The notes: generated from the letters alone by a model not told the origin. DNA of 64,000 bases from an uncultured Planctomycetota bacterium (GCA_963823665.1 CAWGMQ010000005.1:1600001-1664000); one strand, 5' to 3'; counted from the first letter of the stretch, positions 2,155 to 24,339 are shown. Program-made: numbers and translations.

Positions 2155-2219
2155 CGAAGCCTCCTCAGAACTGAGTTCCTTTCGTGCGAATATCGACAAT
2201 CGAGACAATTTCGACCACT

Positions 2220-2735
2220 CTAGCTCATGGCCGGCCCGATCGAAAGGGAGACCGCGCAAAGACCAACGCCGGATCGCTTCAACGCCCACAGCACGCTGCT
2301 TCTCACCGAGCTTTGCCGCTTGCCGCATTTCCTGCCGCGAGCTCTCGCGGCTGCCAGCCCCGCGTACGTCCGCTCGCGGATGAGGTTACGCTCAAACTCC
2401 GCGAGCGCCCCAAAGATGTGAAACACCAGCTTGCCGCCCGGTGTAGTCGTATCAAGGGATTCGGTGACGCTTTGGAATCCGATCCGCTCGGCCTCCAGCT
2501 CGGCCATTAGCTCGATCAAGTGTTTGAGCGACCGTCCCAGCCGGTCGAGCCGCCAGACCGCCAGCACGTTGCTAGATCGGAGCGCATCGTGCAGACGCTC
2601 CAGGCCGGGGCGTTGCACCCTGCCGCCACTTACCGTGTCCTCGATGATCTTCTCGCAGTCGGCCCGCTTCAGGGCGTCACGCTGCAAGTCAAGATTCTGC
2701 TCCGTTGTCGAAACTCTTGCATAGCCGATGATCAT
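2220..2735 (-). pseudogene. Serine recombinase (Pin/Hin-like resolvase), copy 1; catalytic domain intact, C-terminal HTH lost by frameshift/truncation near 2280-2325
   Basis: MIIGYARVSTTEQNLDLQRDAL...VWRLDRLGRS...FGALAEFERNLIRERT. KLGEKQRAV continues in another frame and then similarity ends. Confidence 0.88.
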
Positions 2736-2825
2736 ACCGCACCCCCTTGCCTCTCGAGTTAAGAAGCCCGTCGGAATGTTTGGGAGCGGACTTTTTGCGG
2801 TCAAGCCGCTGAGTCATCGGAACAA

Positions 2826-2849
2826 TAAATAGACCCCAGGTTTGATTGA
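2826..2849 (+). promoter_or_regulatory. hix/res-like recombination site S1 (TAAATAGACCC-CA-GGTTTGATTGA), followed by a ~50-bp conserved arm
   Basis: Imperfect 11-2-11 inverted repeat upstream of the resolvase; homologous to S2-S5. Confidence 0.65.
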
Positions 2850-3119
2850 CGCCCCCTCAGATCGAGGACCGCCGCCCGTTCTTGAGGTCGATCGATGCCT
2901 CGAACTCCTTTCCGTCGTCGCATGGGCCATCGTGCGCGCGCCGTGTCGTCGGATCGACGCGGGTTGGGCAAAAAGTGTGCACTCGGGACACGCCCTCCTG
3001 TGTCGATATGGACTCGTCACATCGGCCGAATTCAGGTAGTGTCAGCGAACGGATCGTCGTCAACAGCGACATCCACTTCGATAAGGACGACCCGCGCAGG
3101 AATGGAATCCGGAAGCAGC

Positions 3120-4547
3120 ATGGGCAAGCGCATCCGAAACTACCGAACAGGCGACCGAGGGGAAGACCTTGGCATCTTCCTGTTGAGAGCGTTCTGCGCC
3201 GTCGCACCAATCCCCAGGCAGGAGGACTTCGGGCTGGCGGATGCCGTGGCCACGCTACTTCGGCCCGAGGGCAGATTTTGGTATGCCGAGGACTCCTTTC
3301 TGGTGCAATTCAAGTCCAGGACCGAGAAGAAGGTGACGCTGGAGGCGCCTGTCTTCGAACGGTGGCTCGCCCAGGATCTCTCGATCCTTGTTGGTCGGGT
3401 GAACCTTATAGAGAAAACCATCGAGTTCTTCACAGTAGGTGCGGCACTCTTCGACCGCCGTGTGCATCAGGCCAGGGGCCTCGTGCTCTGGCTGATAAAC
3501 GGCGAAGAGGGGCTCCACGACGAGGTTTTGCACTTGAGACTGGAAAAGCCGATCCTGAGGTGGTCGGCAGCAGACACCGAGGGCGTTGAATTCACCGACC
3601 GGACGTACGCCGTCCTTAAGCAATGGCTCAAACTGGAGCGATGGAACCGACGGTACTTCCGCGCCGGAGTGGCACGCGAGACCCTGTGGGAGACGAACAA
3701 AATGCCCACGGAAGGTAATGTCGTCCACACTTGGTCCCCTGCGCTCGGACGAGAGGCTCTGGCGGACATTGAACCGCTAGTTCACCTGATCGGCCTGTAC
3801 GCGCGTCATCATCCTGAGCTATGGACTCGGGTACATGCGGTTGAGGATGCCCTTCGGGGCCCGGACGATCCCAGCATGCTCGCGGGAATGCGGTCCTTCC
3901 AGCGCTTAACCGACGCGCCGCCACGTCTGGCAGCGATCGCCAGGAGACACCCGACGGCGGACGCGGTCGTAACGATCCAGATGCTACGCTGCGATGCGGA
4001 GGGTGCAAATTTCTGGATTTACATGTGCGGGCGGGACGGAAGTAGCGTATCGCTACGACACGAGGGGACATGGGCAGAACTGAAGCAGAAGGGTTTTGAC
4101 TACGAAATTAAAGGAGACGTTCCGAGTGCCAAGGTTACGTTGAACCTGAACCGATATTTCGCCAGCGCCCCGATCCCTCATGAGATCGTCGACGGCCCTG
4201 ACGAGACGCTGACCGTGGGTTTATGGGAGCACTCCCCGTGCTTCTTCCTACGTCGCGTCCAGGCGGACGAACCTGTGAGTGGTACAGATTTGATGCCGAC
4301 CGGGTCATCGCAAGAAGGCGCCAGAGCGTCCTCGAAAGCAACCAAGCGGGTCCCGAAAGCGTTGGGCAAGAGCCCGAAGGCGTCCGCTAAACCTGCCGCA
4401 AATGCTCCCAGAGCCGGGGGCGACGACAAGAACAAAACCGTGAAATCGAAGGCCGTAAAACCCGCGATCAAGAAATCAGCAGCCACTAGACTTGCCGCGC
4501 GTGCGGCAAAGGCGACCTCGAAAGGAAAATCCAGCAAGACGGGTTAA
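3120..4547 (+). CDS. PD-(D/E)XK nuclease-like protein (DUF4365-like N-terminus) with Lys/Ala-rich C-terminal tail
   Basis: GDRGE...RQEDFGLADAV...FLVQFKS motif; tail such as KAVKPAIKKSAATRLAARAAKATSKGK. Confidence 0.65.
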   Translation: MGKRIRNYRTGDRGEDLGIFLLRAFCAVAPIPRQEDFGLADAVATLLRPEGRFWYAEDSFLVQFKSRTEKKVTLEAPVFERWLAQDLSILVGRVNLIEKTIEFFTVGAALFDRRVHQARGLVLWLINGEEGLHDEVLHLRLEKPILRWSAADTEGVEFTDRTYAVLKQWLKLERWNRRYFRAGVARETLWETNKMPTEGNVVHTWSPALGREALADIEPLVHLIGLYARHHPELWTRVHAVEDALRGPDDPSMLAGMRSFQRLTDAPPRLAAIARRHPTADAVVTIQMLRCDAEGANFWIYMCGRDGSSVSLRHEGTWAELKQKGFDYEIKGDVPSAKVTLNLNRYFASAPIPHEIVDGPDETLTVGLWEHSPCFFLRRVQADEPVSGTDLMPTGSSQEGARASSKATKRVPKALGKSPKASAKPAANAPRAGGDDKNKTVKSKAVKPAIKKSAATRLAARAAKATSKGKSSKTG

Positions 4548-4799
4548 TTGTCGAATTGGTCTGAAGACTCGGTCGGGACCTGATCAATAGGGCAAGTCCT
4601 TCCGATACACCTGGTACTCGGACGGAATGACCGACGTTCAGTGGATTCGGAAGGCGTACATCGGGGGGTAGGCTGCGGCTTACCAACGGCTGAGCTGACC
4701 GTAGCCGCCATTCTGGTTTCCCGAGCTTCAACGTTCTTGCAGGCAGCAACTGCTGCGCAGCCGAGCGTTTCGGAAGCGCATCGGCCAGATCGACCGATG

Positions 4800-4881
4800 C
4801 GTCTCGCGCCGGCTTCAGTTCATCATGCCGCAAACGGAGACTGTTTTTTCGTCGTCGGGTCCCCCGCGTAGCCGATGATCA
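4800..4881 (-). pseudogene. Degenerate 5' remnant of the same serine resolvase
   Basis: Reverse strand GTGATCATCGGCTACGCG...ACGACG reads VIIGYA..PTT...LRHDELKPA, which aligns to IIGYARIPTTEQSLDLQRDALKRA. Confidence 0.7.
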
Positions 4882-4962
4882 CGCTCCGCAGGCTAGCCGC
4901 CGGAGTAAAGAAACCGGTGAGAGCGGGAATTTTGAGCTGAAGTCGCTAACCGACCGGCATGG

Positions 4963-4986
4963 TAAACAAAACCCAGGTTTGATTAA
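4963..4986 (+). promoter_or_regulatory. hix/res-like site S2 (TAAACAAAACC-CA-GGTTTGATTAA) plus conserved arm to ~5040
   Basis: Close to S1 over ~75 bp (..CCCCTGAGATCGAGCACTGCTGCCCGTTCCTGAAGTCGATCGATG). Confidence 0.7.
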
Positions 4987-5156
4987 CGGCCCCTGAGATC
5001 GAGCACTGCTGCCCGTTCCTGAAGTCGATCGATGACTCGAGCGGCGTTGGGCTCCGCGCCGGGCGCGTGTCGTCGTCGTCGGACCGAAGCTGCGAAGGCA
5101 ACGCGCAGTGGGTACAATGACCAACCTTTAGCGCTCGCAGTCAATTCAGAATTCGA

Positions 5157-5888
5157 GTGACCCCTGTGGCTATCATTCGTGAACCAAACAGCTACCTTCG
5201 CTCGCTCTCGACCGAATTGCAATGCAGGGCTGATAGGATTCGGCACCTGATCGGAGACGCGCATTTCCTCACAGACGGCCATCACAAAGAATATGTACTG
5301 CAGGGCATGATTGAAAACTTTCTTCCCGAGGGTCTTATCTGTGCGCGAGGTTTCGTAGTACGAGATCATGCGCTGTCGTTCATCAGCCTCGAACAAGACT
5401 TGCTTCTCGTGGATGTGCGGCGGTGCGCGCCTCTTTTCTACGAATCCGGCGTCATCGTGACCTTCCCGGAGAACGTCCGGGCGGCAATCTCGGTGAAGAG
5501 TACTCTGTCGGCCAAGACGCTGTTGGATTCGATCAGGGGCCTGAATTCCATTCCTAGGATTGAATCAGAACAACAGCCGTGGCTAGGTGTCTTCGCGTTC
5601 ATTTTAAATAGTGATTGGAGGAAAAACCCCTCTCTTGCAGTGGGATGGGTCAGAAACCGAATGGGTAAGCTGTTCCAACATTGGACAGACGGCGGCATTT
5701 GCTCTAATGGTGAATTGTTCGTACGCATGAACTGTCGCGAGCCGCGTAATGCGCGTGGCTACGCCACAGAATTGTCATCCGCGCTCTTTCTGGCAACCTT
5801 GGTAGATGGGGTTCTAGATCGCGCCGACAGAAGTTCCCGAGGAATTGGTGATCTTATGTCCGGCCTGGAGTTTCCGGAGATCGCGTGA
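5157..5888 (+). CDS. DUF6602-like predicted PD-(D/E)XK nuclease
   Basis: G.HKE.VL..MIENFLP...GFVV...S.EQDLLLVD...PLF...V.AAISVKSTL pattern. Confidence 0.7.
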   Translation: MTPVAIIREPNSYLRSLSTELQCRADRIRHLIGDAHFLTDGHHKEYVLQGMIENFLPEGLICARGFVVRDHALSFISLEQDLLLVDVRRCAPLFYESGVIVTFPENVRAAISVKSTLSAKTLLDSIRGLNSIPRIESEQQPWLGVFAFILNSDWRKNPSLAVGWVRNRMGKLFQHWTDGGICSNGELFVRMNCREPRNARGYATELSSALFLATLVDGVLDRADRSSRGIGDLMSGLEFPEIA

Positions 5889-5892
5889 CAGG

Positions 5893-8800
5893 CTAGGCAT
5901 CATGAACGGCGCGGGTGCCGCCGAAGCAAAACATGACGTTAGCGTGGTCGATCTCGCCTGGAGCGCACCAGCGGTCGCGTTTCTCAACGAGAACGTTTTG
6001 CCGCAACTCTCCAACATCTAGATAAACCCGGCCTCCATATTCTCGGACGGTACCCTGAACCGTCCTCCTGCCGCCCTTTGAGTTTAAGAAGAATGCGCGG
6101 GGGAGCCAGAGCACATTTGACGGGATATGTGACTGGCGCAGTCGGGTAAAAACGCCGGCAGCTGCGTCCCAATCGCCGAGATGCGCGAGGGCAAGCCCTT
6201 GAAGGAAATGAAAGAAGCTCTGTTGCTCAATGGCATCGTTGGTCAGAATCTCGTTGACGATCGACAGGAGTTCCGGCCAATTAATCTCGATGTCGATGGG
6301 CGAGAGCATTGCTCGATGGATTCGCCACCAGTAAAAAACCTCGGCCTGTATCTGAGAGAGCCGCCGGTCAATGTAGCGACCTTCGTCCTTGACTTGCTGG
6401 CGGCATTGGAGGACGTATTGGTATAGCTCGTTGAAATCGCGACCTTTCCCTTTCTCGCGTGCGACTGCGAGCTTTCTGCGGGCGACAACAATAAACCCGT
6501 CCTGGCTGCGGCTGGTCTTCCATACTTCGCTGGCAATCAACTCGGCGTCGGCGCGAGGAAGAGCGGCGTCGTAAATTGCCTCGCGAGCCTCACGTAGCAA
6601 CCCTTCGCTCTTTTTCGATCGTGACCGGACAGCAATAGGTGAGTTATCTAGGATAGCAAGCTTGTCGATCTCGCCGACGGCGTCACACGCGATCTTGAGT
6701 TTGGCTGCTGTAGCGTCTTCGCTGAGCGCGCGAACAAGTTGGAGGCTGATTCCCGCTCCCACGTGGACGGCATGAGCGTCGGCGACCGTTCCTTGTCGGG
6801 ATTTCTCAAGCAACTCTTCTGCCTCGACACGTCCGGCCTCCAAAGTTTTTTCACCTGACTTAATCTGTGTCAGGACCGCTGATGCCATCGACGTATAGAT
6901 GTTCGACTCGGGCTCATTGCGCTCAGTATACGGATAATTTGGTGTCGCCAGTGCGGTCTTATAGAGCCGAAGGGCTTCTGCTGGGTGATTATGCCGATCC
7001 TCCCAGAGTCCCTGGTGATGGACGAGGGCGCGATCCGGTGCTGCCAACGCGTCTATGGCGGCGATGTAAAGATCGCGACCATCGTCGTAGTTCAGTCTTT
7101 CAAGCTTAGGGTTTCCCACTAGCAGCTTGGCGACGAAGTTTCGATAGGTTAGCCCAGATCGCCCAGAGCATGCGCTGATTAGAGAGTGAAGTACGCCGAT
7201 TTCACCAAGACGACCATGCGGACCGCCGTTGATAAGTGTGACGATCGTATCTGTGACGATTTGGTTTCTGCATCGAAGCGAAATGCCGTCATCGCTGTTA
7301 ATCATGTAGAGCACGCCCCAAACTGCGCTGTTTGTCGCGAGTAGATCTTTCGCTTCGCTCCACTCAAACCCAATAGCCGCGCGCAGCAACTCAAACGGAA
7401 GAGCGCAACCGTACATATTTGCAACCGACGTGCAGCGGTACGCTTCCCGAACTCGGTCGGTGCTGATATCGTATTCTCCCTTGATCCTGTTTTTCAGCCC
7501 GTTGATGTCACCGAGACGGCAATACTCGTCTCTAACCGACGAAACGATGATGTGCCTTGTCTGCGGCACCGTGACGTAGAGCGTGTTCAGCACGTCTCTC
7601 GCGTGAGTGAGGTCGGCTCCCTTGAGAAGTTCGCGAGCATTCTGAAGTGAGGATGCGGCCTGGATTGTGCATAGGTATTCGGCCAGGCGGGCAACTTCCT
7701 CCTCACTGAAGTCATCCCCTAGACAGATTTCTGACACAGCAGTTGAATGACCTGTAATTTGGGTCGTGTCAATGGCAGCCCATTCCGATGAGCGGACGGC
7801 GATAATAAGTGTGACGCTGATGCCAAAAGACGCGCAACTGCGAAGGATATGTTGTACTTCTCCTGATCGGGTGTGGAGAGGGTCATCGATCACGACAAAT
7901 GTTTCCCGCGCCTCGGGGAGTTCCGCACGAAAGTCACGGAAGAACTCGTGGAAGACCCGCTCAGGTGTCGAGAGCGGACTGGCTGTTACCCATATGACGG
8001 TCTTGTCGGCTGAAGATAATTCGTAAGCCACGCGCTTGAGCATCGTTGTCTTGCCGTTAGCGGCACTTCCAGTAATAGCCAAGCATGTGTGTGACGCCGG
8101 ATTTTCCCGAGCAAGACGTTTGGCGGTTTCGACCACGTTTGACTCGATATCACGACGAAAATCCAAGTTCATTGAGTAGGCTGCCCACTCGGGCACGGAC
8201 GGCGAAAAAAGTGAGTCGAGGAGCGCCTCTCTGGGAATCTTGTCGACAACTGGTGCGTCAACCGGTTTAACGACGATGCAGATGTCGCGATATCGTTCCA
8301 ACAAGCTTTCATTCTGGGCAACCAGAGGTAACTGCCGAGTCCTGCCGAAGTTCTCCTGAGCGGAGATTCGGCTGACGAGTGCGGAAAGTGAATCCTGAAA
8401 CGCATATGCCGGTATTCGCTTTTCCAACAATCGGAGAAGGGTCCGATTTTGAAGCATCGGGCAGTCTTTCATGAAAACGAGTGAGCTCGGCCGGGTCTTC
8501 GGCGCGGCCAACATGTCGGAGACAAGGTCGAGGAACGCTTCAGCATCACCGTCAACGCCGATACAAATCGCGGGCGATCCAGCGAGCATGTCGCAGAACG
8601 ATTCCAGCGCAATTCGCCACGTCGCGCGAGATGAAAGGTATTCGTCCTCGAAGAGAACAAAGCAATTCTCAGTAAGCGACCCGAGCAGCTTGAACGACGG
8701 CGTGCATCGAGGAGGAACTGGGGCGGTCATGTCGGTGATCGTTGTGAGTGGCTTGCGAGCTGCCTTCTTGTCGATCTCGGTTTGGATTCGAGTTTCCAAA

Positions 8801-9114
8801 TAGGTGTCTAGCGTCAGGCTGAAGATTGACTTCCAATTCGGCTTGGCGAGAGTTGCGAGGTATGGGGATGCCTTTTCCTGCCCGTAGAATTCTCGGATTC
8901 GGTCTCTGGCTGCCGCCTCATCGCCACCTTGCGATCGCAGAAAATCGCCAAGGGTTTTGACGCCAATTACGGCGTCGGGATGGGGATGGTGCAGTTTCTT
9001 CGCTATAGCTCGGTAGAGATCAGCGTGAACAGTCACGCCCGGTCCCGCGATCAATCCGGCGCGGCCGAGTAGGATGTCGGAGATGGACTCTGAATTGACG
9101 GGTTTCACCTGCAT
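5893..9114 (-). CDS. SIR2-like / STAND-type P-loop NTPase / TPR / OB-fold protein (SAMD9/Avs-like architecture)
   Basis: Degenerate SIR2 motifs (LIAGPGVT, IFSLTLD, FKLLGS, CIGVDGD), Walker A GSAANGKTT, Walker B FVVIDD, helical repeats, and a C-terminal beta-rich OB-like segment (VQGTVREYGGRVYLD...VMFCFGGTRA). Confidence 0.72.
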   Translation of the reverse strand: MQVKPVNSESISDILLGRAGLIAGPGVTVHADLYRAIAKKLHHPHPDAVIGVKTLGDFLRSQGGDEAAARDRIREFYGQEKASPYLATLAKPNWKSIFSLTLDTYLETRIQTEIDKKAARKPLTTITDMTAPVPPRCTPSFKLLGSLTENCFVLFEDEYLSSRATWRIALESFCDMLAGSPAICIGVDGDAEAFLDLVSDMLAAPKTRPSSLVFMKDCPMLQNRTLLRLLEKRIPAYAFQDSLSALVSRISAQENFGRTRQLPLVAQNESLLERYRDICIVVKPVDAPVVDKIPREALLDSLFSPSVPEWAAYSMNLDFRRDIESNVVETAKRLARENPASHTCLAITGSAANGKTTMLKRVAYELSSADKTVIWVTASPLSTPERVFHEFFRDFRAELPEARETFVVIDDPLHTRSGEVQHILRSCASFGISVTLIIAVRSSEWAAIDTTQITGHSTAVSEICLGDDFSEEEVARLAEYLCTIQAASSLQNARELLKGADLTHARDVLNTLYVTVPQTRHIIVSSVRDEYCRLGDINGLKNRIKGEYDISTDRVREAYRCTSVANMYGCALPFELLRAAIGFEWSEAKDLLATNSAVWGVLYMINSDDGISLRCRNQIVTDTIVTLINGGPHGRLGEIGVLHSLISACSGRSGLTYRNFVAKLLVGNPKLERLNYDDGRDLYIAAIDALAAPDRALVHHQGLWEDRHNHPAEALRLYKTALATPNYPYTERNEPESNIYTSMASAVLTQIKSGEKTLEAGRVEAEELLEKSRQGTVADAHAVHVGAGISLQLVRALSEDATAAKLKIACDAVGEIDKLAILDNSPIAVRSRSKKSEGLLREAREAIYDAALPRADAELIASEVWKTSRSQDGFIVVARRKLAVAREKGKGRDFNELYQYVLQCRQQVKDEGRYIDRRLSQIQAEVFYWWRIHRAMLSPIDIEINWPELLSIVNEILTNDAIEQQSFFHFLQGLALAHLGDWDAAAGVFTRLRQSHIPSNVLWLPRAFFLNSKGGRRTVQGTVREYGGRVYLDVGELRQNVLVEKRDRWCAPGEIDHANVMFCFGGTRAVHDA

Positions 9115-9317
9115 GTTCTAGCGCCATGAACAAAGGTAGAGGCTGTCGTTGCTGGAGACCTGAATTCTACAGCGAGAGTGGTGCCAGGCGAAATCTTTGG
9201 GGGAGGTAGAATCGCCTTTCGCGCGCTTTGGTGGGATCGACCGAACCATCGGAAGGACTTTTCGACCGGCACCCGGCGAGGCGCACATTTGCCGCACCAG
9301 ACGCGCCGGATCGGTCG

Positions 9318-9877
9318 TCAAATCTGGCCAGGCTGCGCCGCGACATACTTGTAAAGCGTCGGCCTTGAGGTGCCGACCGCTTTGCAAATCTCGTCAATCG
9401 TGTGTTTCTTTTGCCGGTACACATTGACCGCCACGGCACGCTGCTTGTCTCCAAGCTTTTTTCGCCTACCGCCTTTCTTACCGCGTGCTCTCGCGGCCGC
9501 CACCCCCGCGTAGGTCCGTTCGCGGATCAGGTTACGCTCAAACTCCGCGAGCGCCCCAAAGATGTGAAACACCAGCTTGCCACTCGGAGTCGTGGTATCG
9601 ACGGATTCAGTGACGCTGTGGAACCCGATCCCCTGGCACTCCAACTCGCCCATAAGATCGATCAGGTGTTTGAGCGTTCGGCCCAACCGGTCGAGCTGCC
9701 AGACGGCCAGCACGTCGCCAGGTCGGGGCATATCCTGCACCCTCTCTAGGCCGGAGCGGTGCAGGTTGCCACCGGCCGTGTCCTCGATGAACTCCTCACA
9801 CACCGCCCGCTTCAGGGCATCACGCTGCAAGTCAAGACTCTGCTCGGTCGTCGGGATCCTCGCGTAGCGATGATCAC
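9318..9877 (-). pseudogene. Serine resolvase copy 2; full length with HTH, but has a 5' frameshift and catalytic Ser->Pro (YARIPT)
   Basis: Highly similar to copy 1; ends TIDEICKAVGTSRPTLYKYV (Hin-type HTH). Confidence 0.88.
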
Positions 9878-9968
9878 CGTACACCCCCTTGCCGCTAGAG
9901 TAGTGAAACCCCGTGGCAGCGCAAGCCAATGGGATTTAAGGTATCAAGACGCTAGGCCACCGCAGTAG

Positions 9969-10073
9969 TAAAGAGAACGAAGAGGGTTGTATGGGGAAGT
10001 GACCAGAGTGACCGTCGCCATCCCCACCCGCTGTCGTGGGCACTTTCCCATACAACCCTCTTCGTTTGATTGC
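9969..10073 (+). promoter_or_regulatory. hix/res-like site S3 split by an 83-bp hairpin insertion
   Basis: Left arm TAAAGAGAACG (9969-9979), right arm CGTTTGATTGC (10063-10073). The downstream TCGATC lies at the same spacing as in S1. Confidence 0.55.
9980..10062. mobile_element. Small MITE-like hairpin element
   Basis: Terminal inverted repeats AAGAGGGTTGTATGGGGAAGTG / CACTTTCCCATACAACCCTCTT (one mismatch). Confidence 0.55.
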
Positions 10074-10397
10074 ATCCCTCCGGCCAAACCATCCTATACT
10101 CGCGTGTTAGCTCGATCCCGGACCGCAAGAACGCCGTACCGGCAGACAGATCATGCTCGAGAGCAGACTACCCTCGAAACAAGAATCCCCGATCGAATGG
10201 TAGCCCCGGCTCAATCTCCGCCAGCAATCGTCGTCATTCCCACTCACTCAGTTCTGCCGACAGACGGCCATCAATCCGCGGAAGTTCATTTAATGGAGGC
10301 AGCGCTCCGCAGGAAATGAATGCGGCCAGCTCGGGCTGCCAATTCAACCCTCCAGAAGGAATGGAATTCGACTTGGGCACGGTTAAGAGCCGGGGAC

Positions 10398-10421
10398 TTG
10401 AGAAAACGCAGGTCTGATTGA
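10398..10421 (+). promoter_or_regulatory. hix/res-like site S4 (TTGAGAAAACG-CA-GGTCTGATTGA) plus conserved arm to ~10468
   Basis: Followed by CGGCCCCC...CCGATCCTGAAGTCGATTGATG, homologous to the S1/S2 arms. Confidence 0.65.
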
Positions 10422-10647
10422 CGGCCCCCGGTTCTAGGAGCGCCAACCGATCCTGAAGTCGATTGATGGGACAAACTTCTTAGGGCTCTGCACACTGGAC
10501 CTAACGTGCGGCCCTCAGCCGGTTGGCAGCCGGCGGTCGACGACGCGAACGTGAGAATCGTGCGCACTACGGACGAGACGCAGGCGACAGCATTCGGCAC
10601 ATCGCGTAGAATAGTAGATCGAAAACGCTTGCAGGAGGGGGAAGAGA

Positions 10648-11535
10648 ATGAACGTCGTGGAAAAACCCCGCAAGAAACGCGTCTTCATCGCGTCCTCGCG
10701 TGCCGATGCCGCCGAGGTCCAGAAGGCAATGCAGCACTTCGGCCTCGACGTCGTTACGCTGGAGCAGACCGCAACGCCAGGCTCCACGTGGGTTGATAGC
10801 CTCCACCGCTGCGTAAATGATGCCGATATCGTCATCGGGATCATGGCGGACCGCCGGAAAGATGCGAACGTTTTTTTCGAGCTCGGCGTCGCGAGCGCGC
10901 TCAACAAGCCCGCTCTCCTGTTCATCACGCCGGAGTATCCGTCCGACCTCATTCCACCATCGGGTATCCCGTACCTGCGAATGGATCTGCGGAACGAAGA
11001 TGCAGTGATGTTCGGCTTGAAGCAGGCGCTGTCGATTTCTTCGCAACGCGCGCATCAACCCGCGGAGGGCTTCACGACGCGGCCGATCGGGCCAGTAGCT
11101 GATAAGCTGCTAGAAATGCTCCCTCAAACAAATCCGCGCGAGTTTGAGGACTTGATTTTCAACGCCATCAATGCCAGCGGCGCTTCGACAATCGCGCGCG
11201 GAAGCGAGGCCGAAGACCGGGGCGTCGACTTTGCCGTCTGGTCGAGCGACCTGGAACCGACCGTTACGAACCCTCTGCTCATCGAATGCAAGTCCAGCCT
11301 CCGCAACCAGTCCGACGTTGACCAAGCGACCGGCCGTATGTTTCGTGCCCTGCAAGCGATTCACAACGGCTGCGGACTTGTCTTGTACAAGGAGGCCGGA
11401 ACGGTGGCGATGGTGGCACCCCGGTCAATCCCAGTCGAGTTCGTCTCCGCGGAAGACTTCATCAATGGGCTTCGAGATACCGGGCTGGCCGAGTACATTC
11501 GGAAACTCCGGAACACCGCCGTTCATGGGTTCTAA
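10648..11535 (+). CDS. TIR/nucleoside-deoxyribosyltransferase-like domain fused to an Mrr-like restriction endonuclease
   Basis: N-terminal VFIASS...ADIVIGIM...NVFFELGVASALNKP; C-terminal REFEDLI...DRGVDFAV...LLIECKS. Confidence 0.75.
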   Translation: MNVVEKPRKKRVFIASSRADAAEVQKAMQHFGLDVVTLEQTATPGSTWVDSLHRCVNDADIVIGIMADRRKDANVFFELGVASALNKPALLFITPEYPSDLIPPSGIPYLRMDLRNEDAVMFGLKQALSISSQRAHQPAEGFTTRPIGPVADKLLEMLPQTNPREFEDLIFNAINASGASTIARGSEAEDRGVDFAVWSSDLEPTVTNPLLIECKSSLRNQSDVDQATGRMFRALQAIHNGCGLVLYKEAGTVAMVAPRSIPVEFVSAEDFINGLRDTGLAEYIRKLRNTAVHGF

Positions 11536-11538
11536 CCG

Positions 11539-12078
11539 ATGGCCGCGTATGACCCGGCGGTCATTTATGGATATCTGGCTGTCGTCGACAACCCGCCAAC
11601 CAACGCTGCGAAGGGCAAGGCGTTCGAGGACTTGGTCTGTTACCTGTTCAACGGTATTCCCGGCATCACGATCACCGCGCGCAACGAGATGAACACATTC
11701 GCGACTGAGGAGATCGACATCGCGTGTAAGAACGATAACGATCCCACGGGGCTCGGAGCCTTGGCCGATTTCTTTCTTGTGGAATGCAAGGGATGGCGGG
11801 ACGCCGTCAATAGCGAACAAGTTTCCTGGTTTCTTACGAAAATTCGGCATCGCGGGGTGCGTTTCGGAATCCTGATCGCGGCGAACGGGATCACCGGCGA
11901 GTCGGAGCACCTATCCAGGGCCAACTTCTTGGTCAGTGTGGAGATGGCCACCTTCGGCATCAAAATGGTCATCGTCACGCGGGAGGAAATCGAGAAACTC
12001 ACGTCAGGCGAGGATTTCGGCAAACTGATCATTCAAAAAGTCTGTGTTCTCCACGCTTCCGGCGGCCGTTGCTACTGA
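11539..12078 (+). CDS. Mrr-like (type IV) restriction endonuclease
   Basis: KGKAFEDLVCYLF...EEIDIA...FLVECKGW...GILIAANGIT; starts 3 bp after the upstream stop. Confidence 0.8.
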   Translation: MAAYDPAVIYGYLAVVDNPPTNAAKGKAFEDLVCYLFNGIPGITITARNEMNTFATEEIDIACKNDNDPTGLGALADFFLVECKGWRDAVNSEQVSWFLTKIRHRGVRFGILIAANGITGESEHLSRANFLVSVEMATFGIKMVIVTREEIEKLTSGEDFGKLIIQKVCVLHASGGRCY

Positions 12079-12162
12079 AGGCGAGCAACGGACCAAGCGA
12101 GTTTCACGACACGCAGCGCTTTCTACGACCCCGAGAGCCGCTTGCTGTGCCCTAATCCGTCG

Positions 12163-12470
12163 TCATGTGTCGCCAGCCGCCGCGACGTACTTGTAAAGCG
12201 TTGGCGTCGAGATGCCGACCGCTTTGCAAGTCTCGTCAATTGTGTGCTTCTTCTGACGGTACAAATCGACGGCCACGGCACGCTGCTTCTCGCCAAGTTT
12301 TTTTCGCCTGCCGCCTTTCCTGCCGCGTGCTCTCGCGGCTGCCAGCCCCGCGTACGTCCGTTCGCGGATGAGGTTACGCTCAAATTCCGCGAGCGCCCCA
12401 AAGATATGAAACACCAGCTTGCCGCTCGGTGTGGTCGTATCGATGGATTTGGTGACGCTCTGGAACCCAT
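12163..12470 (-). pseudogene. Serine resolvase copy 3, C-terminal half only (helix E plus HTH)
   Basis: GFQSVTKSIDTTPSGKLVFHIFGALAEFERN...TLYKYV; the N-terminal half is absent. Confidence 0.85.
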
Positions 12471-12523
12471 CGCAGCGTATGAAAGTGGTTGTCTGGGATC
12501 AAGACGCCAAACCACCAAATCGG

Positions 12524-12547
12524 TAAACCAAACGGCCGTTTGATTTA
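12524..12547 (+). promoter_or_regulatory. hix/res-like site S5 (TAAACCAAACG-GC-CGTTTGATTTA)
   Basis: Near-perfect palindrome preceded by TCAAGACGC, as at S1-S3. Confidence 0.7.
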
Positions 12548-12725
12548 CGACCGCCACGGTCCACTATGAGACGTGCGATCGAACCAGTTGTCTTCTTCGT
12601 GCGCAGTTACGTCGTCATCGTCGCCGGTCGCCTGATCGGTGTGAAGCACCGTCAGGGTTCTGCCGTACGCTCCCAGGCCAACGACGTCTTCGTTCATTTC
12701 GATGTCTGGAGCGCCGTCAAACCAC
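12545..12725 (-). pseudogene. C-terminal fragment resembling ImmA/IrrE-family metallopeptidases
   Basis: WFDG...EDVVGLGAYGRTLTVL followed by an acidic tail; no N-terminal part is visible. Confidence 0.35.
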
Positions 12726-12920
12726 AAAGCTAGTACTCCCAGGGCGATGCCCTGGGCTTTGTTGTTTTGGCCTTTCAGGCCGGGAAGTGGGTCGGACAAG
12801 AACAACGACAACGGGGCGGCGGTCGATCCGGCCCATTCACCTCGGTTCACTCGCGGCTTGCTCGCAAAGCGATCGGACTGGTATGAGCGAGCCGTCCGTG
12901 ATCTCGTTAACCGCGTAGTC

Positions 12921-13866
12921 GTTTTGATTCGACCGCGTGTTCACAATTAACAAAGAAATCGCGCAAAGCCGCGGCTCCTGACGTTGCAACCGCGTTGATC
13001 GAGTGATTGCACTTTTTTTGGACGCTTTTATTGCCGATCGCTGAAACCGGTCGCATATTATCCATAGGGCAGAGTCTGCGAACGCGCGATGCTGGCGCGA
13101 TGGGCGGCTCCGCTTTGCCTCCCTTTCCTACCTCCTCGTCGATCTCCATCTCATCCTGAAGAACAGCGCTGAAATTCACGCAGGAAGTGCCAAAAAGTGC
13201 CCTTGATAACGAGCCTGAGACCAAAACCGAAACCCAGGCAGGCCTGGCCGTTGCGCACGGCGACTCCGACGCCTTGGCGGCTTTGCCGCGTCGGCGGTCG
13301 AGCGCAGAGTTTGCTGCCCCGGACTCTGAACTGGGGGGAAGGCGAGGAGCTTCCGATTTTGCTATCATTAGTTATCATTTTGCTCCACGGGAGAGAAGCT
13401 CTTGGATCGACCGAAGCCGCTTTCGCATTTGCACTTGCGGAGGGCGGTGGACCCGGACTTGGGGGGTGGAGCGCTTCGCGAGCTGCGCCGTGGCGATTCG
13501 GGGCCGGAATCAGGACGGAGGACGGAGGGCGGAGGGCGGAGGAAGAAGCGCGGAGCGAAGGGAGCCGGAAGACGGAGAGCGGGGATCGGAAGAGACCTTC
13601 ATCGTGGTATCACTTTGGTATCATTTCGCACCAGGGGCGAGAGGCTGGTGGATCGACCGAAGACATGTTTGCATTAGCGTTTGCGGAGGGCGGCCGAACC
13701 GGATTCGGGGTCTGTGCCAGGTCGCGGGCCGCACCGTGGCGATTTGGGGCAAGGCCAGGCGGGCGTTTCGGCTTCGAATTCGGCCGATGGCTCGCCACCT
13801 CGACCGAGCGAGTTCATTCCCGTAGTCCTTGTGGCATAAGGGTGCGCGACGAATGTACAAAACGAA
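12921..13866 (+). repeat. Long non-coding dispersed repeat R1 (with internal ~135-bp duplication); inverted copy at 38076-38794
   Basis: Shared blocks such as GTTTTGATTCGACCGCGTGTTCACAATTAAC and CTCCATCTCATCCTGAAGAACAGCGCTG. Confidence 0.85.
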
Positions 13867-14044
13867 GTGGTCGGTCGGGGTGGACGGTTGAACATTTCGT
13901 TCTGTTGGGATGCTTGACGACGCGTTCCATCATCGAAGTCCATTCCTGCTGAAGAGAGACCATGACTCCAGCCGCATTGAGCGATCTTCAAGATGCCACG
14001 GATGACGACCACTGGCCGTTGCTGAAGAGCGGTCAATTTAGGCC

Positions 14045-14150
14045 TGGTTCAATTGCGGGTAACACTGCCGGCGAGCTGGCGTTGAGCGGGAACGCGATTA
14101 AGCGGAATCCTCGCTGGCGCTTCGGGTTAGTATCGTCGCCAGGACGGGTG
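14045..14150 (+). repeat. Direct repeat R3 with 15283-15390, containing a REP-like CCTCGCTGGCGCTTCGGGTT
   Basis: GGTTCAATTGCGGGTAACAC...CGGAATCCTCGCT.GCGCTTCGGGTTAGT..GTCGCCAGG occurs in both copies. Confidence 0.75.
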
Positions 14151-14399
14151 CGCAAGCTGTTACCCGGTTCGGGGACGGGAGGTTCGACAGGCCCGGAAGC
14201 ACGACCCCTGACAGAACGCGAGGCGACCGGACGCTTGGATGAAGATCAGGCGGCGGGAGTGGATTCGCGACGTGCGGAGAACGAGGGCCGGCGCGGGAGC
14301 AGAGGGCGAGGTTGCACGCCGGGGTCACGAACGTGGCACGAGTTCGCCGACATCGGGGGGAGCGGTGCCCCCGCACGATGTGTGTGAGCCGTGAGCCGC

Positions 14400-14945
14400 A
14401 TTGCGCTCAAACCGGGGGTTCGATCGAGTTCGTCGTTGCATCCGTTGCAAGCCGGATAAGAATCCGAGGTTTTCTGGTCGAAGAAATAGCCGAATCGCGA
14501 AAGTCGATCCATATTCTATGTACCTCAATCTCGATCACCGACATCGAAGTCGGGGCGACGGGCCAACCACTTCTCTGGAACCGGAAATGACTGCTTCGTT
14601 TGCTCGAGCGCATTCTCGAGGAGCTGGACTCGGTCTGACCACGGCTGCGCGGCGGGAAGAGCGGGGTGGGACTGCGCTTGAAAATGGGGGATCGGTGCGC
14701 GACGAAATCCCTCCGAATACTGAGCTGTGCCGAGCGCGGACAGGTTCGGACCACGGCCAGGATGGGTTTTCATCCTTTGGGCCGAGGGATTATGGAGGGC
14801 ATCTGGTGGCGTTATCCTCGTTGGCTCTCAGCATTTCCGTGCTCCGTGAGAGTGTTTCTGCCAGGCTTCGTATGGGGCTCTCGACCGCAATCAAGATGGG
14901 ATTGTTTTCGGGCTGGCAGTTCCATCCAGTTCCATCTAGTTCCAC
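14400..14945 (+). repeat. Non-coding dispersed repeat R2; inverted partial copies at ~41270-41640 and ~42510-42690
   Basis: CTCTGGAACCGG.AATGACTGCTTC..TTGCTCGAGCG and CATATTCTATGTA.CTC.ATCTCG are shared. Confidence 0.8.
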
Positions 14946-16861
14946 TTACTAATACTTATTTGAAACATGCGACGCGTGGCCAGGCTGTCGTGTGACACGG
15001 CGGGGGGATGTCGAACCAGGAATCTTACGAATCACACTAATTAGGGACGAGAAAAGGGGGTCGGTCATTCAGACAGAAGGCGAACGTCGGCCGGCGGGGC
15101 GATGTGCGGGGCGAGTGATCAGCGAGGGGAGGTTCAGCCAGTGCCAGACTTAAGTCGACCGGCGGGCGACTGTTCGCTTTCCCTTAACCCTTGTGGCGTA
15201 AGGACGCGCGACGAATCTACAAAACGAACTTAGCCCTTGTTCAGCGGCGTTGCGGTGTCGTCAAACGGGGCGAAAAAGGGCGTGGTTCAATTGCGGGTAA
15301 CACCGTCCGCAAGCTAGCACGATGCGGGAGCGAGACTAAACGGAATCCTCGCTTGCGCTTCGGGTTAGTGTGGTCGCCAGGGCGGGTGTGCGATGTGTCA
15401 CCCGAACTGCCGCGCGTTTGAACCAGGGGCGAAGAAGTGGGGCTGGACTGGGCTGGAACGGCTTCATCGAGTTGGCGTGCCTGTGCGCTGGCGGCTGTTC
15501 TGAGAGACGAAGAAGGAGTGTTTTCTGTGCGTGAGACGGTTACCTACGAAATTGATCGGGCGATTCGGCGTAATGCCTTGATATGGGAGGAGAACGGCGA
15601 TTGAGAGTGAGACGGAATCTCCTGATTTTGTCTCATTTCGTCTCATTTTGTCTCATCAGACCTTGAGGTCGCGGTGGGTTTCACCCGCCTACGGTGGCAT
15701 TGATGCCGGTATGCGGGGACGATCGCGCATTAGGGAGAGTGGGGCGCGAGCCTTCAATTCGGGCGGCCCACAGTCGTCCAGATCGCAACAGGCGACGAGA
15801 ATACCGCGGGGCTCCGCAGCTAGCTGCCTGCCGGCGCCGCCCCCAACCGCCCTCGGGGCGGCACGTAACATGGTTGGGGGGAGTTTTCAAAGCGTATTGA
15901 ACGGGCACGTCTGTATGAAAATGTTCGAAAGTTAATCATTTATATTGATTGAACTTGCGTCTTTTTCACAGAGATCGAGAGTGCGATTGAGAAATGGGCA
16001 ATTCCGAAAACCGGCGCATATATAGATAGGGAGAAAGTGCGTGGGTCGCCATAGTTGCCACAGTCGTGGCGTGCGTGACTATCAGCCGCAGCTTCGCGGT
16101 CGCGGGAACGCCGTTTTCATTCGCGCGGCGGGAAATCGTCGGGCTGAAGTTTAACCTGCTACGGTTGCGTAAATCGTCAGGCTGAAGCCTGACCTACACT
16201 GGCAGGCTCGTTCCCTTAATGCTTACGGGTAAAGGGGTATCGTCAAATCTACAAAACGAACTGGGGCCTGGTTCGAAGGAAGCAAGGGCAGGGCCACACT
16301 CGCGACGGATCGCAGCACGGGGCGGGTGCAGCCCACCGGCCATAACGCTATATGGGATGGTGGGTTGCACCCACCCTACGGAGAGCCCCGGCGGGCGGTT
16401 GCACTCGCGGACGCCCGGTTTATGCCGGCGATCGGATCACCGCGCAGAACGCGAGACGGAGCGCTATCGCGCTCGGGAGTTTTGGGGGAGGATTGGGTGC
16501 CTACTCCGCAGCGCTGCGCCGGAACACTGCTGGTCTGCGTGGTCTTCCCCCTGCGCGGGCCCCCTCCGCCGCCGGTGGCGGCATCTTCCCCACGACGGGG
16601 GGAGGAATGCGCGCCGCGACATTCCCTGCGCGCCGCCCCCCCACCGCCGCCGCTGGCGGCACCTCTTCCACAAGGGGGAGGAATGCGCCTGGAATGCCCC
16701 TTGCGAAGCCGGGCAGATTGTGATCGACTAAGCAGGAGAGCGACGCTCACCCCACGATCCCCTTAACTTGTTGTGAACGCTTGCTCGGCGAGAGCCTTTG
16801 GCTTGAGCCAATTGGGCTGCTCAGCCGGAGCGCGGGGCGTTGCCGCCTTTGCGAGGACATC

Positions 16862-18816
16862 ATGACTGCCACCCTCTCCGCGGTTCAAGAAGCTCCGGCG
16901 CGTGCCGCGGCGCGAGCACCACTCCCATCATCAACGATCTGGCGATCCGGGTCGGCACGGTGAATGGCTCGGGAAGCCAGTCGGCTAACCTGGTCATTCT
17001 GCGTGCGCTTTACGCGATGGGAATTCCATGCAGCGGCAAGAACGTGTTTCCCTCGAACATCGAGGGGTTGCCAACATGGTTCCACATCCGCGCCAGCGGC
17101 AAGGGATACGTCGGGCATATCCTCGACCCGCAGGTGCTCGTTTGCATGAACGAGGTCACGGCCAAGGACGACACGATGGCCCTCAAGCCCGGGGCCATCT
17201 GCATCTATCGCGATGATTTCGACGTGGATCTTCAATCGCTGCGAGATGACGTGCAGTTGTTCGCTGTGCCCTTTCAGAAACTGGTCGAAAAAGCCTACCC
17301 GCAAGACAAGGCCGACAAGGGGTACCGCGACAAGCTTCGCAAAGTCATCAACATGGTGTACGTCGGGGTTGTCGCGTCCGCGTGCAAGATCGAATTCGAA
17401 GCGGTCGAACAAGGCATCCGGCGCGAGTTCCCCGGGCGGAAAGCCAAGGCCGGCGAGATCAATATCAACGCGGCGCGAACGGGGTTTGAATGGGCCACCG
17501 CCAATCTTCCCGCGGACCTGCCGTTTCAGGTGCAGCGGATGGCGTCGTCCAACGACAAGATCTTGATCGAAGGGAACAAGGCTGCAGCGCTCGGAGCACT
17601 TTTCGGTGGCGCGAGCGTGCTGACCTGGTACCCGATCACGCCTTCGAGCAGCCTGGCGGAATATGCCGAGGAGTTTCTGAAGAAACACCGGGTGAACCCG
17701 GACGGGACGAAGACGTTTGCGGTCGTGCAAGCCGAGGACGAGCTGGCGGCGGTCGGCATGGCGATCGGCGCGGGCTGGGCGGGTGCGCGAGCCATGACAG
17801 CGACGGCCGGTCCGGGAATTGCACTCATGTCGGAGTTCGTCGGCCTGGCGTATTTCGCCGAGATTCCGGTGGTGATCATTGACGTGCAGCGGATGGGGCC
17901 GAGCACGGGACTGCCGACCCGAACCAGTCAGGGAGACATCCTGAAGCTTCACCTCCTGGGACACGGCGACACGCGGCACATTGTGCTCATTCCGGGCTCG
18001 GTCGATGAGTGCTACACGTTGACGATGGAGGCGCTTGACCTGGCGCAACAGTTCCAGACGCCGGTCTTCGTCGCCACTGATCTGGACCTGGGCATGAACC
18101 TGTGGCTGAGCGAGCCGTTCCAGTTCCCCACCAAGCCGCTGGTGCGGGGCAAGCTCCTGAACGCGGCCGATCTGGAGCGCCTGGGGCAGTTCGAGCGGTA
18201 CAAGGATGTGGACGGCGACGGAGTGTGCTATCGCACGATTCCCGGTACGCAGAACGCACTGGCCGCGTACTTCACACGCGGCACCGGCCATAACGACAAG
18301 TCGGGCTACAGCGAGCGGCCCGAGGACTGGAAGAAAAACCTCGATCGGATAGCGCGGAAGCATGAAACGGCCCGGCAGGCCTTGCCGAAGCCTGTCATCG
18401 AGGGAGATTCGAACACCAAGGTTGGCATCATCGCCTATGGCGGAACGCACTTTGCGGTGGTGGAAGCTCGCGATCAGCTCGCCGAGGAAGGGATCTCGAC
18501 GAGCTACTGCCGCATCCGGGCCTTGCCGGTCTCGGACGACGTGAAGCATTTCATCGAGCGCCACCTGAGGGTTTACGTGATCGAACAGAATCGAGATGCC
18601 CAGGTGACGTCGTTGTTGAAATCGAATCTGAGCGGGGCGCTGGCGGACAGGCTGATTCCGATCACGCACTACAACGGCACACCGATCGCCGCACAAAACG
18701 TTGTCCGGCCTATTCTGAGCTGGGAGAAGAGTCCGTCGGGGCCGGGGTGGCCGACGGGCGACGTCGAGGTGGATAACCCGCCGGTGCCCCACGAGGAGGC
18801 CGCGTCGGCCGAGTAG
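16862..18816 (+). CDS. 2-oxoacid:acceptor (ferredoxin) oxidoreductase alpha subunit; apparent frameshift near 16915
   Basis: GTVNGSGSQ, NIEGLPT, YPITPSS, QAEDELAA, TATAGPG, QRMGPSTGLPT; RBS GAGGA before ATG 16862. Confidence 0.92.
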
Positions 18817-18910
18817 CCGGGCCGGCCGCGGAGGAACCGCGTCGCATTAAACATAAACACACGATTACTGACTTACAACGTTTCAGAACGTCGAACCGAG
18901 GCGATCCAAC

Positions 18911-19964
18911 ATGGCGAGCGAAGCTGTCATTCAGGTTCAGAGCAACGGTCTCTCATTCACGCTGCCGACGGTGGCCTTTCAGGGGCTGCCCTCGACGCTT
19001 TGCAAGGGCTGCGGGCACAACAGCATCACGAGCTACCTGATCGAGGCGTGCAAGTCGATCGGCGTCAATCCGTACAACACGATCAAGCTCTCGGGCATCG
19101 GGTGCTCGAGCAAGACTCCGGCCTATTTCCTGGGGGCGAGCCACGGCTTCAACGCCCTGCACGGGCGGATGCCGTCGGTGGTCGACGGGGGCACTCCTGG
19201 CGAATGCCAAACTGCTGTGCATCGGGATCAGCGGCGACGGCGACACCGCGAATATCGGCATGGGGCAGTTCAAGCACATTTGCCGCCGGAACGTGCCGAT
19301 CGTGTACATCGTGGAGAACAACGGCTGCTACGGGCTGACGAAGGGGCAATTCTCGGCGACTGCGGACTTGAACCAGCACTTGCGGAGGCCGCAGGGGGAA
19401 GCCAACGACGTGGCGCCGTTTGATCTGTGCACGGAGGCGATCATCGGCGGTGCCACGTTTGTGGCGCGGTCGTTTGCCGGCGACAAGAAGCAGATGGTGC
19501 CGCTGATCAAGGCGGCGCTCAAGCACAAGGGAACGTCGGTGCTGGACATCATCAGCCCGTGCGTGACGTTCAACGATTTCGACGGCTCGACCAAGAGCTG
19601 GGATTGGGCCAAGGAGCACGAAGAGCCGCTGCACGACGTGAGCTTCGTTCCGCGGCTGCCGGAGATCGAGGTCGAGCAGAAAGCGGGTGAAGCGACGCGA
19701 GTGAAGCTTCATGACGGCTCGTGGATCACGCTCAAGGCTCTTAACCATCTGGACCACGATGTTACGAGCAAGGTGTCGGCGTTCAAGCTGCTGGAGGAGA
19801 GCACGCAAAAGGGCGAGTTCCTCACGGGGTTGATTTACGTTGATGCCAAGCGGCGGGATTTCTTGACGAATCAGACAATGGTCGACATGCCGCTGGCGCT
19901 TTTGCCGGATGAGGCGCTGCGGCCGACGGAAGCGGTGCTCAAGAAGATCATGGAGACGATTTGA
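18911..19964 (+). CDS. 2-oxoacid:acceptor oxidoreductase beta subunit; frameshift near 19185
   Basis: LCKGCGH, SGIGCSSK, HGR, GDGD, ENNGCYGLTKGQ, ISPCVTFN. Confidence 0.92.
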
Positions 19965-20181
19965 GCGCGTATCTTGGCACGGCTGGCGGCCGGTCTTCAC
20001 CCCCCCTGCCCGCCCTTGTCAAGGGGGGAAAGGGTGCGAGGGCGTTTGCAAGGGGGAAATCGCTTGCGCGCCGGGGACTTCCGCGCGCGTTTGGTCCGTT
20101 CGCGTGCACCCCCCCTGGGCCCCCCTTCTTAAGGGGGGGAAAGGGTGCGCGGGCAGACCGATCGCGTGTATCCTGGCGTGC

Positions 20182-22456: not shown

Positions 22457-22466
22457 TCGAATCGTG

Positions 22467-23954: not shown

Positions 23955-24339
23955 GAGCGACAGAATCCATTCTGTATTCGGAACGCCGATCGATCCAGCG
24001 TCTCGCGCCTCGCATCAATCCATCGAATGAGGCAGCAGGTTACACGGCGGAAGGATTATCGAGCAAGTTCGGCTGAACCCACGTTCAATCTTAACGGATT
24101 TCGGGGTTGGGGAGATGACAGGTTATCCGACCGAAACGTGATTGAAGCAGCACTGGCCGGAAGGTCGATGAAAAGCCGAGTGTGGTGGGTCAGGCAGGCA
24201 CCGGACTTGCCGCCAAGTCGAACTCCTGTTACGATCCGCCGCTTTTCGGCGCGGCAAGCCGAGACCTGGGATCGATCGCCGGAGCTGGAGACGGACTCGA
24301 TCAAGGCGGGCGGTCGCGTTTTGAAGGGAGACGGATGAG

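Follow-up and report, generated by a model that had tools for sequence, protein, structure and literature searches.

Near the left end of a 64-kb stretch of a soil planctomycete genome lie five short, similar palindromes, S1 to S5, with gene cargo and pieces of a small serine recombinase gene (resolvase) between them. Are these palindromes the crossover sites of such an enzyme, and could the cargo have been stacked there by recombination at the sites? The whole stretch (G000:C5:1600001-1664000) is called the window below; the genome that contains it, G000, has 16.46 Mb in 12 contigs. A first-pass annotation of this DNA had proposed exactly such stacking, in units of site, cargo and resolvase gene. 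We find that the sites are real and that homology to a genome of the same genus starts at two of them, and we consider it most likely that the array is a decayed head-to-tail stack of modules assembled by recombination at the sites; some points sit poorly with this account and are weighed below.

The array sites are non-random. We derived a degenerate 22-mer pattern from the reported sites and scanned it over the 64-kb window and over 100 shuffles. It matched the window 8 times versus 0.58 expected, and 0 of the 100 shuffles reached 8, so the claim of five 11-2-11 sites pointing in the same direction was borne out. Plus-strand matches fell at S1 (2826), S2 (4963), S4 (10398, with 3 mismatches) and S5 (12524). 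S2 and S5 are near-palindromic and were therefore matched on the reverse strand too, and there were weak outlier matches at 12908 and 56296. The pattern of the right half alone gave 5 matches versus 0.69 expected, 4 of the 5 inside the array. All five sites have one orientation, plus, as judged both by sequence asymmetry and by the organization of their flanks. Inverted half-sites around a 2-bp centre, the feature expected of a crossover site, are found at S1, S2, S4 and S5 and at the sites of relatives, with the position of cleavage being a prediction only. The array also differs from its surroundings in base composition, at a G+C content of 0.54-0.60 versus the higher 0.61-0.64 of the flanks.

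Read along the plus strand, a unit is made of a 24-bp site (11-2-11), an arm of ~110 bp, the cargo, a resolvase gene on the minus strand, and ~100 bp of non-coding DNA that leads to the next site. The recombinase gene of each unit thus reads away from the next site, and the ~100 bp before that site are predicted to hold accessory half-site motifs. The series in the window opens with a truncated unit 0, which extends from resolvase copy 1 to S1. The left boundary of the array falls at about 2280, within copy 1 and away from any site: homology to a comparison genome (G008), with which the window shares only the peptidase gene on the left, stops there. Unit 1 runs from S1 to S2 (2.1 kb), unit 2 from S2 to S3 (5.0 kb) and unit 4 from S4 to S5 (2.1 kb); the 0.33-kb interval from S3 to S4, described earlier as empty, indeed has no supported gene. 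Direct-repeat analysis returned three long resolvase-derived copies together with shorter repeats that span the sites (families D1, D2 and D5-D9). Two counts in the first-pass annotation needed revision. It had placed an arm after four sites; the arm family, D8, follows only three, namely S1, S2 and S4. It had also placed a whole or partial resolvase copy before four sites, and resolvase homology does precede S1, S2, S3 and S5 (families D1, D2, D6 and D9, and tblastn), but no copy is whole. S4 is followed by an arm and lacks any resolvase remnant.

The most direct view of how the array may have been built comes from a second genome of the same genus (G001). Core genes that lie right of the array (window 16691-24696) share 85% identity with a segment of G001 contig C7. 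Closer in, S5 and its right flank (window 12523-12728) again match G001 at 85%, with the homology beginning at the site. On the left side of this matching site, where the window has resolvase copy 4, G001 carries 590 bp of AT-rich DNA. Further left come a degenerate site, a resolvase gene that lacks its first codons, and ~5.5 kb of DNA that ends in another site and arm. The ~5.5 kb encode four open reading frames (ORFs) without a Pfam match and differ from the cargo in the window. The site and arm at the far end match S2 and its arm (4962-5039, 85%), and the left flank there is of another type. With the right sides at S5 and S2 shared in this way, the homology starts within ~1 base of the 24-mer at two junctions, while the cargo differs.

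Reassortment of flanks was also evident more widely. We compared 80 loci that encode relatives of the recombinase, 15 of them planctomycete loci and 65 others. With a symmetric site pattern and a tolerance of 2 mismatches, two or more sites were present in 9 of the 15 and in 1 of the 65, and a shuffled control returned 2 matches in 1.13 Mb; this contrast is biased, as planctomycete sites were the source of the pattern. In a scan of 81 genomes of the order, 18 had a match, G000 the most of all, and the reversed control pattern returned 2 in total. At the close planctomycete relatives, the left flank of a site is one of three types: A, B (which carries a resolvase stub) or C. On the right, a site is flanked by one of two arms (arm 1 or arm 2), by a spacer of 47-54 bp that runs to a second site (a 'double site'), or by unique sequence. 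Most combinations of left and right flank types occur. When 40-bp flanks were compared without gaps, over up to 33 sites, 57 pairs matched on the left only and 24 on the right only; 9 matched on both sides. Indels make such a comparison conservative and at times wrong: S1 and L027, both of type A by eye, score 0.28 on the left. In aligned pairs, the homology changes over within the 24-mer. L034_10732 and L046_17393 agree in 40 of 40 bases on the left and on through the centre, then in 30% on the right; L040_9838 and L046_17393 behave in the opposite way, with 38% on the left and 90% on the right. Of 7 type B stubs, 6 can still be aligned with the 5' end of a resolvase gene, and 4 of these also have the adjoining sequence in common. 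No stub is followed by a resolvase gene and the neighbouring cargo differs from stub to stub, as would be expected if modules without the gene went on recombining. Loci L034 and L035 contain units without cargo, of 836 and 833 bp, in which the arm comes after the resolvase stop codon and forms the end of a minimal element. The features of the array itself are collected in Table 1.

Table 1. Features of the site array and its edges, in window coordinates
Feature	Position	Strand	Evidence or remark
Resolvase copy 1, catalytic domain, YARVSTTEQ intact	2217-2735	-	Pfam Resolvase E 6.8e-45, no HTH_7
Putative accessory region, type A, from the resolvase start codon to S1	2736-2825		Conserved across loci
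Site S1, 11-2-11, centre CA	2826-2849	+	
Arm type 1 after S1	2850-2965	+	Repeat families D5 and D8; alignment
Unit 1 cargo, 550-residue protein	2895-4547	+	No Pfam, NCBIfam or PADLOC match
Perfect hairpin with 8-bp stem, 3' flank of resolvase stub	4777-4801		Position conserved in other type B modules
Resolvase copy 2, decayed stub of ~25 codons, type B module	4811-4882	-	Alignment with full-length copies
Putative accessory region, type B, half-site-like motif at -69	4883-4962		
Site S2, centre CA	4963-4986	+	
Arm type 1 after S2	4987-5100	+	85% identity with the arm that follows the G001 site
Unit 2 cargo, DUF6602 / PD-DExK-like nuclease	5157-5888	+	Pfam E 5.3e-12; PADLOC PD_DExK E 3.8e-15
Unit 2 cargo, 1073-residue STAND NTPase (nSTAND_NTPase5, TPR)	5893-9114	-	Pfam E 2.1e-17
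Resolvase copy 3, full length, HTH_7 E 1.7e-8	9318-9929	-	Pfam Resolvase E 6.4e-38
Site S3, split: left half 9969-9979, insert 9980-10062, right half 10063-10073	9969-10073	+	
S3-S4 interval, no supported gene	10074-10397		Corresponds to the spacer (47-54 bp) within 'double sites' at other loci
Site S4, weak left half, centre CA	10398-10421	+	
Arm type 1 after S4	10422-10535	+	
Unit 4 cargo, TIR + Mrr_cat protein	10648-11535	+	CAP12-PCTIR_TIR E 9.8e-7, Mrr_cat E 1.9e-4
Unit 4 cargo, Mrr_cat protein	11539-12078	+	Pfam E 2.2e-7
Resolvase copy 4, reduced to a C-terminal part (query residues 84-182)	12178-12468	-	Repeat analysis and tblastn
Site S5, centre GC, last site of the array	12524-12547	+	
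Right flank common with same-genus G001 (85%), homology from the site onward	12548-12728		

Units of the same kind occur elsewhere in G000. A complete single unit lies at C5:1538k, in the order site, resolvase, IetA-like ATPase, IetS-like S8 peptidase, arm, site. Its resolvase is an open 198-residue paralogue, 62 kb upstream and 77% identical, which retains the catalytic serine and has the recognition helix PTLNKHA rather than PTLYKYV. Another resolvase, at C8:1881k, is a pseudogene that comes with a site and an arm. Remnants that consist of a site plus an arm were found at C4:799.9k, C8:1908k, C8:1942k and C8:2067k. A metagenome scan with an arm pattern gave mostly chance matches; of 80 loci, 2 (L187 and L213, on contigs of 1.5 and 1.0 kb) are genuine copies of a site with its arm. 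At three loci (L032 7541-8038, L036 10525-11166 and L026 6820-7470), ECF sigma factor genes, two of them truncated, adjoin resolvase units; given how many such genes these genomes have, this may be chance.

Public sequencing runs gave one hint of a missing unit. The best run contained 0.26 of the sampled words, and all the runs were stored as assembled contigs of other soil samples. One 618-nt soil contig connects window 4915, left of S2, with 9976, where the left half of S3 ends, and goes on through the insert and the S3-S4 interval. It lacks 5,060 bp, equivalent to unit 2, although it stems from another sample and its letters between the two sides are missing. Other joints were set aside, as their sides were short or lay in paralogous resolvase sequence.

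Several observations weigh against assembly by recombination at the sites or do not fit it neatly. Serine recombinases normally require identical central dinucleotides in the two sites that they join, yet the centre varies between sites: it is CA, CA, CA and GC in the array and CT and TC around the C5:1538k unit, with many others in relatives. We also found no orthologous empty site for the C5:1538k unit, whose flanks are multi-copy kinase and sigma paralogues. Neither a circle nor an excision was seen, the runs consisting of contigs from other soil samples. The left end of the array falls within a resolvase gene, and integration between molecules is disfavoured by classical resolvases. In double sites, the spacer of 47-54 bp is conserved in three genomes although a circle of that length is too small to have moved. 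A further point is the insert that splits S3, a palindrome of 83 bp whose terminal inverted repeats are 17 bp long and which lies exactly in the S3 core. Its sole other copy in the genome (G000:C4:1344562; positions 2062-2140 of locus L149) abuts a right half-site with a type 2 arm. An Rfam microRNA match to the S3 palindrome was spurious.

In the account that we consider most likely, the recombinase would cut both strands at the central dinucleotide of two sites and swap the halves. A circle with one complete site would be released from two directly repeated sites, the reverse reaction would insert it at a resident site, and modules would pile up by repeated insertion. Modules without the gene that retain site and accessory region, the type B stubs, could be moved by an enzyme acting in trans. 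The sites, the make-up of the units, the gene defects and the reassorted flanks are observations; circles, integration and action in trans are inferred from them.

Three alternatives are judged unlikely. In the first, the least unlikely of them, a res-resolvase locus was copied several times by homologous or illegitimate recombination without site-specific mobility and the copies decayed; the site would be an autoregulatory or resolution site that accompanies each gene copy, and the cargo would have come by other routes. In its favour are the resolvase-derived sequence beside every site except S4, the decay of all copies, the position of the left boundary and the mixed centres. Against it are the many independent flank combinations that switch within the 24-mer, across genomes and across types A, B and C, the sharing of only the right sides of S5 and S2 with G001, the arm at S4 that lacks a resolvase remnant, and the stubs with differing cargo. 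In the second, res sites would be landing pads for res-hunting transposons of the Tn5053/Tn402 kind or for small palindromic elements, which brought the cargo. A TniB fragment (L031 5508-6242, E 5.7e-58) lies 2 kb from a double site in a related planctomycete contig, the S3 insert and its other copy both touch half-sites, and some arrays have IS transposases nearby. Among the ORFs of the window array, no Tni gene, transposase or terminal inverted repeat was found, and units have complete sites at both ends in place of target duplications. TniB matches in the genome are marginal (E 7e-4 and 9e-4, both reaching the cut-off only when neighbouring segments are summed) and lie elsewhere. In the third, the array would be a working switch, in which the paralogue 62 kb away deletes or reshuffles units between compatible sites and so varies the defence repertoire of a population. 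S1, S2 and S4 share the centre CA, the paralogue is open and has its serine, and the soil contig lacks unit 2. Deletion, on the other hand, would be irreversible unless units re-integrate, the recognition helix of the paralogue differs, and the contig belongs to another sample and organism, with a likeness of 90% or more.

Whatever built the array, its own enzymes would no longer serve it. In copy 1 the catalytic-serine motif, YxRVSTxxQ, is present; homology is lost after the E-helix, and the C-terminal helix-turn-helix has been replaced by unrelated sequence. Copy 3 departs from the motif, with the catalytic serine changed to proline (YARIPTTE), and the loss of 1 nt from codon 4 has moved the usual start codon into another reading frame. 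Together with the stub and the C-terminal fragment that make up copies 2 and 4, this means that all four recombinase copies of the array are defective, to judge by their sequences, and because they are, the array would be a fossil, frozen in its present order barring action by the paralogue 62 kb away.

The cargo in the window looks defence-like, comprising as it does predicted nucleases, a STAND NTPase and a TIR-Mrr pair. The identities given in the first-pass annotation to the DUF6602, TIR + Mrr_cat and Mrr_cat proteins were confirmed, at modest Pfam E-values, and the genes of the DUF6602 nuclease and the 1073-residue NTPase proved to be convergent. The NTPase, which had been named SAMD9-like, matched nSTAND_NTPase5 together with TPR. 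The S1-S2 gene had been called a DUF4365-like nuclease. Its 550-residue product has no Pfam match even at E<=5, and what stands of the name is a lead from a language-model search, in which 24 of 30 matches were to DUF4365 clusters at a score of 0.90. No known defence system was recognized in the array by PADLOC, which returned only the PD-DExK model and weak TIR matches.

It had further been proposed that these units collect anti-phage genes, and here the relatives did not bear the proposal out. Pfam matches in their cargo were to GNAT acetyltransferases, an alpha/beta hydrolase, MarR, an esterase and an AraC/GyrI-like regulator, and many of the proteins had no match. At E<=1e-5, PADLOC matched none of 27 ORFs from the metagenome-genome loci (L031-L038) and none of 5 from same-genus G001. 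The only PADLOC matches among the cargo of related sites came from G000 itself, in the IetA/IetS-like pair of the C5:1538k unit (L026 9533-12856, corresponding to G000:C5:1539533-1542856). This pair matched with E 5.3e-61 and 2.4e-28, both proteins scoring below the NCBIfam equivalog cut-offs. Outside this genome, the cargo is thus not shown to be enriched in defence genes.

Structure in the non-coding parts of the units was sought in several ways. Rfam returned nothing for the sites or the arms, and folding of an alignment of 17 arms gave 0 predicted pairs and no consensus structure. A strict scan returned a single perfect hairpin at the end of a unit (4777-4801), and the notion that hairpins bracket every cargo was dropped. 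The arms finish in a hairpin motif whose loop, GTCGTCGG, is conserved and whose stems co-vary. This motif, noted in the window arms and at G000 loci L139-L146, also turns up at ~8 places in the genome away from any site, in many cases right before a purine-rich tract.

Some features of the DNA to the right of the array were noted as well. An Rfam match to Acido-Lenti-1 lies outside the array, 190 bp right of S5, at 12738-12782 on the plus strand (34.1 bits, with a gathering threshold of 37; E 1.5e-4). One soil contig has a 42-base 'goes back' joint exactly at this match. The region 12910-16690, which separates the array from the conserved core genes, is occupied by repeat families that are multi-copy in G000 and in its congener. 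It contains direct repeats D3, D4 and D10 and has no Pfam match, and its first part, 12910-13895, matches at least 10 places at 80-88%.

How the recombinase and its sites compare with known systems can be stated at several levels. Among viral contigs we found 13 relatives of the recombinase, all at <=64% identity, and these give no sign that the lineage would be phage-borne. No tyrosine-recombinase domain was found in the 14 ORFs scanned within 1-15 kb of the window. The array contains no Tn3 transposase; the single DDE_Tnp_Tn3 match in the 16.46 Mb lies at C5:888340, beside a resolvase of 41% identity. The profiles of the Ccr recombinases, 442-558 positions long, match the catalytic domain only, at 44 bits versus a cut-off of 900. 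Assignment to the small serine recombinases is secure, from the PF00239 matches of copies 1 and 3 (E 6.8e-45 and 6.4e-38); the relatives are 186-187 residues long. The closest solved structure is that of the Gin DNA invertase (E 7.6e-43), followed by gamma-delta resolvase (6.5e-26), with Tn3 resolvase weaker.

The first-pass annotation had called the array an integron-like platform. This is not supported, if such a platform means one recombinase and one primary site that captures promoterless cassettes: every unit has a res region of its own and a recombinase gene or its stub, which looks like tandem accretion of small, self-contained modules. Integrons share with the array the series of unrelated genes between recombination sites and cargo that varies between relatives and is in part defence-like. 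They rely on a tyrosine recombinase, a single attI and promoter, and attC sites that recombine as folded single strands, in contrast to the double-stranded 24-bp dyads here. The pdif modules of Acinetobacter plasmids resemble the type B stub modules in being bounded by short sites, in occurring in different contexts and in having no recombinase gene; they depend on the tyrosine recombinases XerC/XerD of the host, and pdif sites alternate in orientation. SCC elements also insert one after another at a single site by means of serine recombinases, leaving direct-repeat junctions and remnants without a recombinase that can move in trans, and the title of one paper links SCCmec with anti-phage defences that move in tandem. 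Their Ccr enzymes are large and use attB/attP-type sites without an accessory region, whereas the enzyme here has about 186 residues. The Tn3 and gamma-delta systems have in common with the array the small recombinase, the dyad crossover site and sites in direct repeat, an arrangement from which resolvases produce deletions; the array differs in lacking transposon ends and in having several res regions around unrelated cargo in one chromosome. The Gin/Hin invertases likewise have a site close upstream of the recombinase gene, and gix/hix sites are short dyads with a 2-bp centre and a similar make-up. With five direct sites the array has no invertible segment, and the predicted accessory half-sites would stand in for an enhancer.

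Andersen et al. (PLoS Biol 2026, PMC13552941) report that small serine recombinases mark anti-phage defence loci across phyla, and they postulate mobilization; their main text mentions no res or recombination sites, repeats, excision or planctomycetes. Literature searches returned no description of res-bounded cassette arrays of small serine recombinases, and a tycheposon preprint deals with tyrosine and large serine recombinases. The present locus and its relatives offer candidate sites, unit boundaries and natural recombinant junctions. If the modules move, res-site arrays in chromosomes would add a route of gene capture to integrons, Xer modules and SCC islands, and their cargo might be searched for new defence genes. 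In a broader reading, possible but judged less likely than not, the Gin-like lineage would run a general gene-exchange system: res-bounded modules, whether or not they carry a recombinase gene, would leave as circles and re-enter at any resident site, and this would explain the reported linkage with anti-phage genes.

The sites can be compared in the same way. A dyad of the same kind is found ~100 bp upstream of the recombinase start codon in relatives from many phyla. A weight matrix for the half-site picked out extra half-site-like motifs, all of them to that side of the crossover site on which the recombinase gene lies. These putative accessory motifs lie at -69, -50 and -29 in type B, at -79 and -50 in relatives of type A, and at -120, -84 and -71 in type C; S1 itself has none above the matrix threshold. 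The arms on the other side have no half-site motifs, with two exceptions: the second site of a double site, and a pair of weak motifs at +27 and +28. Going by these motifs, site and predicted accessory region together would be organized as in a res site, and not as in a pair of invertase sites.

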